Assembly: GCA_030390025.1 (NCBI GenBank)
Contig: CM059432.1
Span: forward strand, 30,816,001 to 30,880,000
DNA length: 64,000 nucleotides
Origin: Squalus acanthias
Lineage: Eukaryota
Direction: 5' to 3'
Shown here: in pieces, positions 55,684 through 63,687 of the stretch
How the letters are laid out: every line of letters starts with the position of its first letter
Position numbering within the stretch: position 1 is the first letter of the stretch
Notes under the pieces: model-generated
What the model saw: the letters and a program-made list of their open reading frames with translations, nothing else
Told to the model about the DNA's origin: nothing
Databases searched by the model: none
Position numbers and translations under genes: made by a program

Positions 55684-56215
55684 CAACAACAATAACAACT
55701 TGCACTTATATAGCGCCTTTAATGTAGCAAAACGTCCAAAGGTGCTTCACAAGAGCGATATCAAATTTGACACCGAGCCACAGAAGGAGATATCAGGACA
55801 GGTGACCAAAAGCCTAGTCAAAGAGGTAGGTTTTCATGAGCATCTTAAAGTAGGAGAGAGGTAGAGTGGTGGAGAGGTTTAGGGAGAGAATTCCAGAGAT
55901 TAGGGCCAAAGCAGCTGAAAGCACGGCTGCCAATGGTGGAGCGATTAAAATTGAGGATGCTAGGTGCACAAGATGTTAGAACTGGGGGAGCGCAGAGATC
56001 TCGAAGGCTTGTGGGTTTGAGGAGGTTATAGAGATAGGGAGGGCTGAGGACATGGAGGGTTTTGATAACAAGGATGAGAATTTTAAAATTGAGGTGTTGC
56101 CAGACCGGGAGCCAATGTAGGTTAGCAAGCACAGGGATGATGGGTGAATAGGACTTAGTGCGAGTTAAGATATGGGCAGCAGAGTTTTGGATGGAAGATC
56201 GGAGGCCAGCTCGGA
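55684..56215 (-). mobile_element. L2 LINE 3' end
   Basis: IQNSAAHILTR...PVLANLHWLPV...GSRAFS...LWNSLP; CAA-repeat tail. Confidence 0.9.
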
Positions 56216-56520
56216 AAGACATGAGACTTTCAATCCATCGGTCTAGGCCAAAAGTGAAAGGTCAGTTTCTAACCCATTGTGCTATCCTAATTTTAACCTA
56301 ACATTTTATCGGATAAATCATTAAAACTGACTCGTTTTAATGACCTATCCAATAAAATCCCAGAGCTCATTCGTGCTAAGTTCCTCAAGCATATTGCTAC
56401 CTAATGTGTCATGCACAATCTAATTTCATCTATCTAATCTTACACTTATGCACGTTGAACTCCATTTACCCACTTTTGTCCCATTGTCCCACTCTCTTCC
56501 CTTTGAATTATTGTGCATTG

Positions 56521-56735
56521 TGTCATAAATCGCAAATAACAACTCAGGAAGTACTACTGGGCGGCCAGCTGGGGCGCCGTCCAGGGAGTATAAATACTCA
56601 GGCATGGGCCCACCTTGGGCAGAGACAATCTGGAAACAGGAAGCTAGTGACTGCTAACTAGACCTCCATGTTTTGTTACAAGTTGATTAAAGCCTTGCTT
56701 TATGTTCAAGTGCGTAGTGAGTCTTTATTACGTCA
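56521..56735 (+). repeat. 5' LTR (215 bp)
   Basis: 4 differences from the 3' LTR by eye; TATAAAT 56589-56595; ATTAAA 56686-56691. Confidence 0.97.
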
Positions 56736-56835
56736 ATTTAATCAACTTGGTATCGTCTCCACGCTTTGGGTGATTCGGAACAACCAGCTGCAACTCGAAC
56801 CACAGAAGGGAACTAGGGCAAGAAACTGATCCATC

Positions 56836-58068
56836 ATGGAAAAACTCCTTAGACCCGCTCGTCTCGACCTGGACCCGAATGCACCTGCGGCAGCGAAGGT
56901 ATGGAAGCATTGGTTTCGTACCTTTAGCAATTTTCTTGAAGAATGTGGGGCGGATGTCCCTAATAAGTTACGAATGCTTATCAACTACGTGTCTCCTCAT
57001 GTGTATGATTATATTGAGGACTGTATAGACGATGACACTGCTATTGAAATCTTACAGCAGCTATATGTCAAGTCCCCAAATGAAATCTTTGCTCGACACC
57101 TACTGGCCACAACTCGGCAGCAGCCTGGGGAATCACTCGATGAATTTCTCCAGAAACTTCGCAGGCTCAGCAAGGATTGTAACCTTAAAGCAGTTACAGC
57201 TCAACAGTATCAAGAGGAACTAATCCGCGATTCCTTTATCAATGGGATCGCGTCCCCTTTTATACATCAGCGCCTGCTGGAAAATAAAACCCTCAATTTA
57301 CGGGCTGCTTATGACCAGGCGTGTTCCTTGGACTTGGCCAAGAAAAATGCAGACACTTATCTCCCACCACGTGCACGGGCGGCGGCTATCTCCTTTAATG
57401 AGTCTTTCGGTAGGTCTCGGGCGGATGCCCCCACTGATGTCGACTCTACTCTAACAGACGACGACTCTACCCTAGAGGCCTTCGCTGATGACGACCCCGC
57501 CCTAGCAGCATCCTGGCAATCAGGAAGAAAGTGTTTCTTTTGTGGAGGGGCGTGCCATCACAGAAAATTTTGCCCGGCTCGTAATGTGACCTGCAATCAT
57601 TGCAGCAAGAAAGGACACTTTTCCAAGGTATGCCAGTCACGGGCCTTTGCTAACAAGAAAGGCCGCTCCTCTAAAGTATACCGGTCGAGAGCTCCTGTTA
57701 GCTTCACAGCTGCTATCTATGGAGCTGCTCCTCCCCCAGGAACCACTGTTAAGGCTACAGTTGCCGAAGGGAAAATTGCCCCTCCTCCCATCACGGCTGT
57801 TTTTCCCCAAAGTTTGTCCCATGCAGCCACGAAGGTTTCAGTAAATGGGCACACTCTAAGCGCGCTAATCGACTCCTGCAGCTCTGACAGCTTCATTAGT
57901 AAGCGGGCTGTCAACAGGTTAAAACTGCACACTTATCCCTCGGACAGGGAGATTGCAATGGCTCTGACGACTCTGACCACCAATTCTTCTGGCTTCTGTC
58001 TTGTCAACCTCATCCTCAACGGCCGCACGTATCTCTCCACCCGGCTCGGAGTACTCAAACTTATGTAG
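56836..58068 (+). CDS. gag: Gag-protease (two Cys/His knuckles, aspartic protease); frame broken near 58060
   Basis: CFFCGGACHHRKFC and CNHCSKKGHFSKVC; ALIDSC protease motif. Confidence 0.9.
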   Translation: MEKLLRPARLDLDPNAPAAAKVWKHWFRTFSNFLEECGADVPNKLRMLINYVSPHVYDYIEDCIDDDTAIEILQQLYVKSPNEIFARHLLATTRQQPGESLDEFLQKLRRLSKDCNLKAVTAQQYQEELIRDSFINGIASPFIHQRLLENKTLNLRAAYDQACSLDLAKKNADTYLPPRARAAAISFNESFGRSRADAPTDVDSTLTDDDSTLEAFADDDPALAASWQSGRKCFFCGGACHHRKFCPARNVTCNHCSKKGHFSKVCQSRAFANKKGRSSKVYRSRAPVSFTAAIYGAAPPPGTTVKATVAEGKIAPPPITAVFPQSLSHAATKVSVNGHTLSALIDSCSSDSFISKRAVNRLKLHTYPSDREIAMALTTLTTNSSGFCLVNLILNGRTYLSTRLGVLKLM

Positions 58069-60766
58069 CGATGTGCTTCTGGGACAGGACTTCCAGAAGC
58101 AGCACAAGAAGATCACTTTTGAGTTTGGAGGGTCAAGGCCGGAGCTTACCATTTCTAAGGTGCCGTTTTGTGCACTCTCGGCGGCCTTACTCGGTGAACC
58201 CTCCCTGTTTGCCAATCTTCCCCCCCGCTGTAAACCCATAGCCACCAAATCGCGGCGCTTTAGCCAAGACGATCGAGCGTTTATTGAGGCGGAAATCTCT
58301 CGCCTTTTAGTCGACGGTATTATCGAGCCATGTTCATCTCCCTGGCGGGCTCAGGTCGTCATCATGAGGAATCCCTTAAAACAACATAAAAAACGTCTGT
58401 GTATCGATTATTCGCTATAATATACCGATCTGGATGCCTACCCGCTGCCACGCATAGATGACATGGTTAACAACCTTGCCAAATACAAGGTATTCTCGAC
58501 CTTCGATTTAAAAAGCGCGTACCATCAGGTGCCACTGCAAGACTCCGACAAGAAGTATACGGCCTTTGAGGCCAATGATCGGCTTTTCCAGTTTCGCCGC
58601 CTTCCATTCGGGGTCACCAATGGGGTGGCCGTCTTCCAACGGGCCATGGATGGCCTAGTCCGGCAAGAGAACTTGACGGATACCTTTCCGTATTTAGACA
58701 ATATCACTATTGCCGGCCATGATCAAAAGGAGCATGACGCCAATCTTCAGAGATTTTTTGACGTACTCCGCCGTCGCCACTTAACGTTAAACGAATCCAA
58801 ATCGGTGAAGTCAGTACCATCGGTGAACATTCTTGGCTACTGGGTGGGCAACGGTGTTATTAAACCGGACCCAGAGCGACTTCGTCCACTTCAGGAGCTC
58901 CCTCCCCCGACGAACCTCGGCTCTCTTCGTCGGGCACTTGGCATGTTTGCTTATTACGCAAAATGGATACCACACTTCTCCGATAAAATACAGCCCCTGC
59001 TTCATGCGAAGTCTTTTCCATTGGAAGCTACGGCTATTTCTGCCTTCAACCTCCTCAAACGACAGCTGGAGAAAGCCACACTTCGCTCCATTGACGAAAA
59101 TCTTCCTTTTGTCGTCGAATGCGATGCATCGGAGGTGGCGATCTCCGCTACCTTGAATCAAGGTGGCCGACCCGTGGCATTCCTATCCAGAACCTTGCAG
59201 GGTAGCGAGCTCCATTACCCCCCCGTCGAGAAGGAGGCTACGGCCATCATCGAGGCTGTACGCCAATGGGGTCATTTTCTTGTTCGGCGTCATTTTACGC
59301 TTATAACTGACCAGCGCTCTGTGGCCTTCATGTTGGATAACCGGAGGCGCACGAAAATCAAAAATAATAAAATTCAACTCTGGAGGATGGAGCTGGCTGC
59401 CTTTGGATATACTATCTGTTACCGACCCGGCAAACAGAACGTGGCCCCAGATACCTTCACACGGGAATTTTGCTCCTCAATGTCAACGTCGACTCTGGCG
59501 GATTTGCATATGGTCTTATGCCATCCTGGTGTGACCCGCATGTTGCACTTTGTGCGCTCCAAAAATCTACCATTTTCAACCGAGGACGTAAAGAAAACAT
59601 GCTCCTCCTGTAGGATTTGTGCAGAATTGAAACCACAATTCTTTCGCCCATCAGATGGCTTACTCATACATGCAATGCAGCCTATTCAGAGGCTCAGCAT
59701 AGACTTTAAAGGGCCATTGCCTTCGTCGACAAGGAACACCTACCTACTTACGATGGTGGACGAGTATTCACGCTTTCCCTTCGCCTTCCCCTGCCCTAAT
59801 ATGCTTACCTCTACGGTAATTAAATGCCTCGATCAGGTCTTTTCCCTTTGCGGGACGGCCAATTTTATCCACACTGATCGGGGTCCCTCCTTTATGTCGA
59901 GTGAACTTAAAAGTTATCTCTCCCAACGGGGAATCGCCTCAAGTAGGACGACACCATATCACCCAATCGGTAACGGACAGGTTGAACGATACAATGCCAT
60001 CATCTGGAACACTGTCCGTCTGGCACTAAGGTCACGCAACCTGCCGGACCAGCAGTGGGAAACGGTGCTCCCCGACGCGTTACACTCTATCAGGTCTCTT
60101 CTCTCCACATCTACTAATGTCACGCCTCATGAGCGATTCTTCAAATTCCGGCGTCGCTCGACACATGGGACGTCTCTACCGTCATGGTTGGTGGCTCCAG
60201 GCCCGGTGCTACTCCGGAGGTTCGTCCGGTCTGCCAAAAACGACCCTCTCGTTGACAAGGTGGAGTTAACGGAGGTAAACCCCACGTATGCGCACGTACG
60301 GTACCCTGATGGCCGGGAGACCACCGTCTCGCTCCGAGATCTGGCTCCCTGCCCAACCGGTCACACGGGCCCGAATGATGAAGGATCCCCCGACAATGAT
60401 ATCAACACTCCGCACCCCTATGAAAATGACGCCCCGCCTGGGACATCGGGGGATCTGCCGGCAACGCTACCGGATCAACTCAGGGAGCTGGACGCTCCCC
60501 GTAGGATGGCCACCCGAAACCAGGACGCCGGACAATCTCCAGCCACGACCCGGGATGAGGCCAGCTCAGCACCTGTGGGGACCCGCACCCGGAGTCATGA
60601 TATTCCCAGTCCTCCACAGGATGATCAAAATGACGCGGACTCTACTGACTTACCGGTACGGGCCAAGCGACCCAGGGACCAGGACACGGTCCGGGGAGAC
60701 GTGCCTTCCAGTCACAAGCAGAGAGCTAAACGTCTACGGCTATTTCTGGTCCACCTAGTCCGTTAA
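58060..60766 (+). pseudogene. pol: Pol (RT-RNase H-integrase) with a lesion near 58420
   Basis: RLCIDYS* then DAYPLP; LPFG; YLDN; CDAS; HHCC zinc finger; IDF / TDRG / VERYN integrase triad. Confidence 0.92.
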
Positions 60767-60788
60767 AGGAAGACTGGACTTCCAAACC

Positions 60789-60804
60789 TTTTAGGGAGGA
60801 AGAA
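60789..60804 (+). other. Polypurine tract
   Basis: TTTTAGGGAGGAAGAA directly before the 3' LTR. Confidence 0.85.
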
Positions 60805-61019
60805 TGTCATAAATCGCAAGTAACAACTCAGGAAGTACTACTGGGCGGCCAGCTGGGGCGCCGTCCAGGGAGTATAAATACTCAGGCATGGGCCCACCTT
60901 GGGCAGAGACCATCTGGAAACAGGAAGCTAGTGACTGCTAACTAGACCTCCATGTTTTGTTACAAGTTGATTAAATTCTTGCTTTATGTTCAAGTGCGTA
61001 GTGAGTCTTTATTACGTCA
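60805..61019 (+). repeat. 3' LTR (215 bp)
   Basis: Direct repeat of 56521-56735, followed by CATTG. Confidence 0.97.
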
Positions 61020-61174
61020 CATTGGTTGGCATCTTTCACCACTGCACCTAATTTGGTATTATCTGCAGAGTTAAACACCTTGAACAATATTCCATTCTCT
61101 AAGTCAATTAGAAAAGTTCTAAACAACAGCAGCCCCAACACTGGCAACCTGTTCCCACACTGATGCCTCCACAT

Positions 61175-61745
61175 GCATAGGAACATAGGAACAGGAGTAG
61201 GCTACTTAGCCCCTCGAGCCTGTTCTGCCATTCACTGAGATCATGGCTGATCTGCGACCTAACTCCATATACCTGCCTTTGCATCAAATCCCTTAAAAGC
61301 TTTAGTTAACAGAAATCTATCAATCTCAGTTTTAAAATTAACAATTGATCTAGCATCAATTGCCATTTGTGAAAGAGAGTTCCAAAATGCTACCACCCAT
61401 TGTGCATAGAAGTGTTCCCTAATTTCACTCCTGAAAGGTCTGGCTCTAATTTTTAGACCATGCCCCCCAGTCCTAGACTCCCCAACCAGCGGAAATAGTT
61501 TCTCTCTATCTACTCTATCTGTTCCCCATAATATATTGAAAACTTTGATCACATCACCCCATAACTTTCTAAATTCCAAGGAATAAAACCAATATTCCCT
61601 TTATTTTTTTTCTCGGTGCCCATTCAAAATACCGCGCATGTGCGGTTTTACCCATTTAAAAGCCGGTGAACCAGCTGCATGGGCCACGTGGCCGCACAGC
61701 TTAAGGAGAACATTGAATACACCGTTAGTTTGTGTAATCTCTACC
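61175..61745 (-). mobile_element. CR1 3' fragment containing a MITE
   Basis: ORF 61259-61579 encodes the CR1 C-terminus; GGAACATA tail repeats. Confidence 0.88.
61590..61715. mobile_element. hAT-type MITE, second copy
   Basis: CAATATTCCC...GAGAACATTG ends; flanks AATAAAAC / AATACACC; reverse homologue of 16487-16630. Confidence 0.75.
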
Positions 61746-61784
61746 ATCACCATTTGCTGTCTCCCTTTCAGCTATTGATCAATT

Positions 61785-62245
61785 CAGCCTAATACTGTGC
61801 TATCTATCCCATGGGCCCTCACCTTGTGACTCAGTCTGTTAGTTGGGACAGTGTCAAATGCCTTCCTGAAAATCCAGGTGGAGAACATCCACTGCCTCAC
61901 CCCTGTACTTCTAGATGACCCCTTATGCAGTCTCCTATCAAATTTTAGAACTTTCCCACAACCAAGGTAAGGTTCACAGGTTTGTAATTTGAAGGTAGGG
62001 GTAACATTTTCTACTTTCAATTTGGGATGTTACCCAATTTCAATGAGCTTTGAAAGATATCAGCGAGGGGATTTGTAATCTGCTCCGCCAATTGCACCAG
62101 CATTATTGGATGAACTATATCAGAGTCTGGATCCTTGTTAAACTTCAGCTTCCTAAACCTTTCTATTATCCATCCCTTTGTGATGTTAAGTCTGTTCTCT
62201 GTGTTATACCCTTCTTCCAAAATGAATCCCACTGCTCTGCTCTTG
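61785..62245 (-). mobile_element. Old CR1 RT fragment
   Basis: PLADIFQSSL...NVTPTFK...FRKAFDTVP. Confidence 0.8.
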
Positions 62246-63687
62246 TGAAGGAAATAACCATATTCCAAGAAATATATCATCCTATAGACAGATTTGATAA
62301 TATTAAAACATGACAAACTGGGGTTAAAAATCTAAAAGCCTCAACGACACAAGCCGTAAAACAGAAATACAGGCTTCTGAGATAAAGATCAGTTGTTAAC
62401 AAAGTTGTAAACATCACAAGCTTTGAAATGGGAAATGTTTGTAAATACAAAGACATGGCCCTATTGAAACATTGGAACCAACACAATGGAATGACCCAAG
62501 TAAAGTATCAAAATCTAACACGTCGAACAGGTGCACAGAACATTAAAAAAAACAAGTGCCTTTGAAAAAATGACATCAAGTAAAAGAAATACCTGCCGTA
62601 AAATAGTTTTATGTTAAACTTAGAAACAGGAGACATGATTCTTAATACAACCAATTGAAGTAAATAAGAACTTCAGGGAACACCCTAGATGAAGTGTTTA
62701 CAAGTTATAAAAGGTACAAATAGGAAGGCTTTGAAAATATAATATCAATAGATGACACCAAGCAATTACATTGTGTTTGTATTGAAAATGGAATAGTTAG
62801 GAGACACGACGTCTGACTTACAAGCAGTTAAGTGATATTAAGAATTCAATAGAAAGACTTCCTAAGAATAGCATCAAATAGATAAATCGATAATAACCAT
62901 TTTATGATAGTTTTTGAAACACCTAAAGGTAAAGACAGAATTTTAAAGAGTTGGCAGCTGAAATGACAGTAAGAATAGAAAACAATTCAATAGAGTATCA
63001 CGAGAGACAATTAGCTTACATCAGCAGAATACTTCAAAGAATAAACCACTAAAAAAAGTATAAAAATAAGAGCTTTTTAGATGAAAAGTCAGAAGTCGCT
63101 GGAAGGGCAAGCGTTTCTCAACTTCACAGGCACGCTCTGTAAGTTTATAACTCTGAGTCTCGGGTAATCAAGGTATTTGATTTTGGTGGATATTCTGGAT
63201 TAAGAATTAAGTAGAAGTGTGGAAATGTAACAAAGTTAAGATTTGAGAATAAGGATCTCTGATAAGAAATGTAAGCTATTTGTATTTTGAACGGTTAAAG
63301 TTGCGATTGCCATAACAGCTGTTAACTAAATGTCGATTCTTTAATAAATCTATATATTTTTAGAATTATCTCACAGAGTATTTCTGTATAAACTCGCGAA
63401 CTCAATTTCTGTATACTCAAAGGAGTTGCAGAATTCTGGGAGGTATTCTGGACCCTCATAATATCCGGAAGGTTACAGTCTAGTTAAACTTATTAAAAGT
63501 GCTATCCGGAGGACGGTAACATCTTCTCGCCGTTCCTTTCCTTAGGGAGAGGTAGTCTGACCTTTAGACCCAATTAAGCGTCTTATAGAATTAGGCTATC
63601 TTTAACTTTAGTTGAAGGTGAACGTCTGGGGAATACGCCTGATCTGGGGTAGCCCAAAAAGGGCTAGGACTTGTAATTATCCCTTCA
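62246..63687 (+). mobile_element. Long retrovirus-like solo LTR, copy 2 (1442 bp)
   Basis: TGAAGG...CCTTCA termini; flanks CTCTTG / CTCTTT; TATAAAA 63059-63065; AATAAA 63343-63348. Confidence 0.85.

Follow-up and report, generated by a model that had tools for sequence, protein, structure and literature searches.

The element described here raises the question of how a Ty3/Gypsy LTR retrotransposon primes reverse transcription when its 5' LTR is not followed by the TGG of an ordinary primer site. It occupies 56521-61019 of the window, the whole 64,000-nt stretch of DNA that was analysed. It was classified by its two TG...CA LTRs, target duplication and polypurine tract, by the Pfam domain order Gag-protease-RT-RNase H-integrase, and by its RT, whose best solved relative was Ty3 RT (E 2e-50). 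The features on which the argument draws are listed by window position and strand.

56516-56520, + strand: 5' target-site duplication CATTG, repeated at 61020-61024
56521-56735, + strand: 5' LTR, 215 bp, TG...CA, a direct repeat of 60805-61019 with 4 differences
56589-56596, + strand: putative TATA-like box TATAAATA, 90 nt upstream of the target; its position varies in relatives
56679-56691, + strand: LTR arm, the predicted 13-nt self-primer, with 13/13 pairs to 56737-56749 and matched changes between families
56686-56691, + strand: ATTAAA, likely poly(A) signal, within the predicted primer
Between 56691 and 56692, + strand: predicted cut, by analogy with Tf1
56692-56735, + strand: loop between the arms (rest of R and U5), from folding
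56694-56710 and 56712-56733, + strand: predicted hairpins in the loop, from folding
56736, + strand: unpaired A between LTR end and primer site, an unpaired A in 15/15 duplex families
56737-56749, + strand: primer-binding position, leader +2 to +14, complementary to the element's own LTR
56750, + strand: recurrently changing base adjoining the duplex; A, G or C, never T
56836-60766, + strand: gag-pol, with two CCHC knuckles, protease, RT, RNase H and integrase, without a chromodomain
60790-60804, + strand: polypurine tract preceding the 3' LTR, from sequence
60805-61019, + strand: 3' LTR, with the target copy at 60963-60975 and a private two-base change at 60976-60977
61020-61024, + strand: 3' target-site duplication, copy of CATTG at 56516-56520

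The gag-pol frame of 1313 aa was unbroken in many copies and broken near 58055 and 58415 in the window copy; two C-X2-C-X4-H-X4-C motifs were read in the Gag translation. The host genome of 3.7 Gb contained at least 622 exact LTR-leader junctions of this family and 2020 matches to its LTR pattern, and the two LTRs of most compared copies differed by 0-3 bases. The family is young. A search of the genome with a distant protein returned the window family only. Several other features of the surroundings were recorded. LINE-like fragments flank the element on the - strand (55845-56261 and 61259-62331), which we take to resemble the ends of LINE reverse transcriptases, and four loci (L181, L216-L218) were tandem or nested copies of the window family and the second family described below. 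The stretch around the TATA box (56586-56617) was the only part shared by contigs in several sequencing runs at far higher depth; judged from this contig depth, another abundant LTR family has the same TATA box. Five organisms among the sequencing runs contained the 5' part of the family in nearly identical form (0.58-0.73 of sampled words), which may reflect closely related hosts or transfer between hosts.

The preliminary description had reported a 15-nt complementarity between the primer-binding position and the 3' LTR, and its letters were accurate: 56735-56749 is the exact reverse complement of 60963-60977, and 56737-56749 is that of 56679-56691, the 13-nt match in the 5' LTR. As also described there, no TGG follows the 5' LTR, which ends in CA at 56735; the target overlaps the ATTAAA signal, placed at 56686-56691, and lies about 90 nt downstream of the TATA box, which is TATAAATA at 56589-56596. 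The length of 15 nt, however, although exact in the 3' LTR of the window copy, did not extend to the family, whose form is 13 nt. The two extra pairs arose from a two-base change at LTR positions 172-173 that is private to the window copy's 3' LTR and was seen in none of the first 100 of 2020 LTR matches listed; the count of 15 also includes 56735, the terminal base of the LTR, and +1, which does not pair. The 13-nt form was present in the 5' and 3' LTRs of 60 loci, apart from an older subfamily and single changes, with leader +2 to +14 as its primer-site arm. From base composition, 1.6e-5 perfect 13-nt complements starting at +1 to +3 would be expected in the LTR. The 186-nt region folded no better than its shuffles (z -1.17, 25/200 as good), so the signal is one duplex and not overall stability; the loop was likewise no more stable than shuffles (z -0.7). 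Two loci (L068 and L177) shared a C>T change in the primer site that gives a G-U pair, with the LTR unchanged.

We further examined the duplex in related elements. A protein search found 382 relatives, of which the 120 listed had 48-69% identity, and the named ones among these came from shrimp, copepod, isopod, tunicates and cnidarians. Metagenome and genome contigs were scanned and yielded 92 loci, of which 34 were inspected upstream of the match. The 23 loci with the Gag start were kept, L133 and L135 were left out for want of a CAAT, and five rows that were extra copies of two families were also left out (L087 and L088 had one mismatch each); the pairing test comprised 16 families and the window family, 17 in all. 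The LTR end was set by a second LTR in L083, L086, L089, L119, L121, L129 and L164 and by the CAAT rule in the rest; L119, L149 and L161 had several CAAT, of which the one with TT next was chosen after the first pairing result had been seen. The partner of each primer site was the best window in the 150 nt upstream, a choice for which the cross-family control allows.

In 15 of the 17 families, 12 or all of the 13 bases from +2 were paired; L142 and L096 had no duplex. Pairing averaged 12.3 within families versus 9.1 across families, and 0/100000 permutations reached the observed sum, although the families are not independent, L081, L082, L083 and L142 being close kin and the window family and L089 sharing one 13-mer. 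As controls, the next 13 leader bases gave 6-10 pairs, like shuffles, and shuffled LTRs gave near 8. In the 15 duplex families, 192 of 195 cells were Watson-Crick pairs, and 9 of 13 columns contained two or three Watson-Crick pair types, with RT-RNase H identities to the window family of about 47-60%. The duplex started at +2 in 15/15, and +1 was an A and never paired in 15/15, an A that is partly fixed by the CAAT rule. Past the duplex, at +15, +16 and +17, pairing fell to 8, 7 and 7 of 15 families. Three loci outside the clade (L169, L171, L172) had an ordinary TGG primer site, and an RT-RNase H tree of 30 rows split the 27 clade rows from these three at full support.

Matched changes were found at short distances as well. 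Of 655 junctions in the host genome, the first 100 listed included 4 with an A>G change in the primer site; these 4 copies represent an older subfamily, and each of them had the corresponding T>C in one LTR or both. L084 and L089, two members of a metagenome family, differed at 8/600 positions, and among the differences was a change at paired bases of the primer site that was matched in the two LTRs. The covariation that the preliminary description had proposed to look for was thus present, the primer-site arm changing with its LTR target both across families and inside the genome, and the duplex was kept in 15/17 families where a lack of conserved complementarity would have spoken against self-priming. 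The older subfamily (L173-L176, L214) has LTRs about 90-94% alike; some of them have reverted to T at what is now a CpG, and L214 lacks one base at the variable position.

Further observations were made on the same alignments. The G:C pair at leader +11 (56682 and relatives) was invariant in 15/15 families while its neighbours varied, perhaps through a second constraint such as an initiator. The bases after the arm (56692-56710 and relatives) were RCCT-like and often paired with AGGY 4-31 nt further on; a stem of at least 4 occurred in 11/15 families, the window family not among them by this rule, with 59 pooled versus 42 in shuffles (P 0.001). Such a stem would place the predicted cut at a helix junction. 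CATGTT, often as GCCGCCATGTT, lay 12-93 nt upstream of the target in 7/15 families (56663-56674 in the window), and either form presumably resembles a YY1 site. In the 5' LTR region of L134 (3425-3495), the segment separating the two arms had the opposite orientation to that in the 3' LTR, as though it had been flipped by recombination between them. Gypsy elements of animal type were also present in contigs filed as bacterial MAGs (L161-L169, L171, L172), likely from host contamination of the bins. A search of viral contigs returned no relatives.

The base adjoining the duplex behaved differently from the rest of the element. Among the first 100 of 622 junctions listed, 56750 was A in 77, G in 21 and C in 2. 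Genome-wide, T had 0 matches and G or C had 119 versus the 622 junctions, with 84 G and 16 C among the first 100 G/C junctions listed; the overall proportions were roughly A 80%, G 16%, C 3% and T none. On a tree built without it, from 104 unique copies at 116 loci in a sample deliberately enriched for G, 56750 required 32 changes versus 34.4 for shuffled labels (P 0.195), whereas the other 15 informative sites, one of them 65 nt away, tracked the tree (ratio 0.07-0.59, 0/200 shuffles as low). In 50 full-length copies it was the most four-gamete-incompatible of 34 sites (25/33 pairs, the next having 17), and it was unlinked from LTR sites too; six G copies shared one haplotype. In two small metagenome families the same base differed in 1/4 and 1/3 copies, once to T. 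Contigs from 8 runs had A at 56750 in all 7 runs that covered it, which was not taken as evidence of expression; neither a start nor an end of the RNA was visible in them.

Three ordinary sources of this variation were tried and rejected: decay of a CpG, since the context is not CpG; a subfamily marker, since the base is independent of the copies' tree; and recombination alone, since the site 65 nt away tracks that tree. A-to-I editing beside the duplex may contribute, though it would give neither C nor the one-base loss in L214. We infer that plus-strand copying runs off the end of a 13-nt primer starting at 56679 and there adds an untemplated purine. Had copying continued past 56679 into a 5' extension, the preceding base would have specified T, and T was not found at 56750. 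Should the variable base prove to be a trace of such run-off, genome sequence would suffice to locate primer ends; the pattern held in one family of the two tested.

The second clade family of the same genome (L213:4770-9235; G000:C8, about 36.174 Mb) has 69% amino-acid identity to the window family, a 197-bp LTR and at least 1708 junctions. Its duplex of 11 bp also began at +2. Of its 1708 junctions, the first 100 listed all had T as the first unpaired base, and an A/G site at +16 mostly tracked the tree (ratio 0.57 with P 0.01 in 31 copies; 0.89-1.11 for flanking bases, the positive control). The hot spot past the duplex was therefore not repeated in this family. After the fact, one might excuse this by supposing that an added purine is poorly extended opposite the family's first unpaired base. 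The duplex of this family begins at the A of TTAGTT, which we take to be an initiator-like motif; about 70 nt upstream of its target there is a TATA-like box. Short inverted repeats flank the TATA box in both the window element and L213.

The reading that we consider probable is Tf1-like self-priming, with the 13 LTR bases as primer and likely forming the 5' end of the RNA; that the element primes itself at all, whichever way the primer is made, appears highly likely from comparison of the sequences. The proposal of self-priming in the preliminary description is accordingly upheld by the clade-wide duplex with matched changes, by the matched change inside the genome and by the search for a tRNA with a gene-end pattern and Rfam, which gave no candidate. 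In the proposed series of steps, the RNA would begin at 56679 or be trimmed to it, and 56679-56691 would fold onto 56737-56749. The element's RNase H would then cut after 56691. From the 3' end so released, RT would begin copying at the unpaired A, 56736, and proceed into U5 and R. In later plus-strand synthesis the 13-nt primer would itself be copied, so that the primer site would be rewritten from the LTR and the arms would stay matched, and run-off at the primer's end would add the untemplated purine and give the recurrent A/G/C change at 56750. In families whose arm includes a poly(A) hexamer, this fold may in addition mask the 5' signal.

The manner in which the primer is made is where this reading meets its closest competitor. 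TATA boxes upstream of the target in both genome families would give 5'-extended RNAs, which argues against a primer at the RNA 5' end. The RNA could instead start near 56620, about 30 nt downstream of the TATA box, with the 13-mer inside R, to be freed by the 3'-side cut together with a second cut or 5' trimming, or supplied by the 3' R or a second packaged RNA. TATAAATA at 56589 does have a CA 32 nt after it and could drive transcription in the window family, and the TATA-like box of the second family fits the same scheme. The first base of the predicted primer is a pyrimidine in 14/15 families, and a pyrimidine is unusual as the first base of a Pol II transcript. The hot spot moreover fixes the primer's 5' end and not how the primer is made. 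Nevertheless, only 2/15 families had TATAWA upstream of the target, one at -90 and the other at -62, and no family had it at -25 to -35; the 11-nt duplex of the second family starts at the A of its initiator-like motif; and an internal primer needs one step more than the known mechanism. We regard it as unlikely. Since the TATA distance is not a feature of the clade, and since 56750 points to 56679 as the primer 5' end, the different geometry suggested in the preliminary description found no support. That the duplex is only regulatory or structural, hiding the 5' poly(A) signal or aiding packaging while another primer is used, is improbable. In its favour, A(A/T)TAAA occupies target bases 8-13 in 8/15 families, and ATTAAA is the only such hexamer from the target start to the LTR end in the window family. 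The other 7/15 families keep the duplex with no hexamer in the arm, however, so masking cannot be why the duplex is kept, and the suggested masking survives only as a possible second role. The arm also begins at +2 in 15/15 families, where copying must start, leaving no room for another primer, and 56750 would have no explanation.

Priming by a host tRNA or tRNA fragment, either at the TGG of 56748-56750, which is present in the window copy, or at +2, is very improbable. TGG is a minority allele, found in 21 of the first 100 of 622 junctions listed. A 5-bp target duplication adjoined the same LTR ends in 48 of 50 full-length copies, so copying must start a few bases from 56736; a start at +13 would make the LTR 12 bases longer, and the duplications rule this out. 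The tRNA search covered a gene-end pattern and Rfam. The pattern gave 1 match at 1 mismatch, not a tRNA, versus 18 in the control, and Rfam gave no tRNA family match in 56480-56900 at E up to 10. The tRNA complementary to the region at 56748 that the preliminary description had named as contrary evidence was thus not found by either route. A tRNA reading would also demand a different fragment for each family, each equal to that family's LTR. Hardly any weight can be given to a chance match or a DNA-level inverted repeat with no role in the RNA. Both arms are A/T-rich, the region folds no better than shuffles, and the L134 inversion indicates that the arms sometimes act as a DNA repeat; against this stand the expectation of 1.6e-5, the matched changes and the fixed position across families.

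To our knowledge, self-priming has been demonstrated in elements of fission yeast alone; for the related chromoviruses and for a single Copia lineage of plants it is a prediction. It is also mentioned in some Repbase entries for Gypsy elements of animals. The Tf1-like reading, if true, would make the present clade, which lacks a chromodomain and is spread through marine invertebrates, a large animal case, very active in a vertebrate-sized genome with two families of at least 622 and at least 1708 junctions. It would then be relevant to the question whether hairpin priming is an ancestral trait or arose anew, and to the escape of elements from host control by tRNA fragments. LTR finders that require a tRNA site miss or mis-annotate such elements. 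In its most far-reaching form, which we hold to be rather doubtful, the mechanism would be an independent invention in a widespread animal Gypsy clade unrelated to Tf1/sushi, with a 13-nt primer cut on both sides from a TATA-driven RNA, a fold that also hides the 5' poly(A) signal, and 56750 as the record of the primer 5' end. Outside subscription journals and Repbase entry notes, the available portions of the literature did not describe self-priming for any animal Gypsy clade that lacks a chromodomain.

In body plan the element resembles Mag and other animal non-chromovirus Gypsy elements (Micropia/Mdg3, CsRN1, Cigr-1, Saci2, MolGy) by their partial descriptions, with a short LTR, a compact single frame and two knuckles. 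Unlike those clades, it has motifs of its own, mostly YLDN in RT and TDQ.S..FM in RNase H. According to the accessible text, Mag and Micropia/Mdg3 usually have two CCHC knuckles (PMC2577118); since these are shared with Micropia/Mdg3, they are not diagnostic for Mag. The Mag A LTRs, in the part of the source available, contain AATAAA and no conserved TATA (PMC3601003). The Saci2 families, as far as the available part of their description goes, have tRNA primers (PMC12471100); they were not matched to the window clade. Five supplementary files of PMC6238403 contained no matching motif, and the accessible part of that article no passage on primer sites. The ESM Atlas returned only eukaryotic Gag clusters without names.

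The Tf1 self-primer is 11 nt long, whereas most clade families have a 13-bp duplex, and about half of them, unlike Tf1, have the poly(A) hexamer inside the primer. The clade resembles Tf1/Tf2 (S. pombe), Tj1 (S. japonicus) and Tf1/sushi in its LTR-complementary primer site, lack of a tRNA site and Gypsy order, so far as the available parts of the sources describe these (10.1101/2022.12.06.519325, PMC4600332, PMC11042837, PMC5341516). The Tf1 self-primer lies at the RNA 5' end in the accessible text of 10.1101/2022.12.06.519325. According to the portions available of PMC11042837 and PMC3185545, the cDNA ends made by Tf1 RT include a copy of the primer site, and the enzyme also adds untemplated bases; such additions would fit the variable base of the window family. 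Unlike Tf1/sushi, whose integrase usually has a chromodomain at its C-terminus, 8/8 clade proteins had no Chromo match at E up to 0.05, and the clade has two CCHC knuckles. The side helix of the three-duplex "pretzel" of Tf1, from the loop to the downstream leader, was not found, such pairing being no better than in shuffles in 15/15 families (z -0.6 to 1.3); the loop ends paired weakly and in some folds only, and a small hairpin directly after the arm was enriched in many clade families. Because it has neither a chromodomain (8/8) nor the pretzel, the clade was not filed in Tf1/sushi. In plants, the available part of the REXdb paper predicts self-priming for Tcn1 (Gypsy) and TAR (Copia) from complementarity between primer site and LTR (PMC6317226). 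Tcn1 and TAR are plant elements of other lineages, whereas the window clade was found in animals. As with TAR, self-priming is deduced here from that complementarity outside Tf1/sushi (PMC6317226), and the Tcn1 and TAR predictions, to the extent that the source gives them, mean that the mechanism is predicted in more than one lineage.
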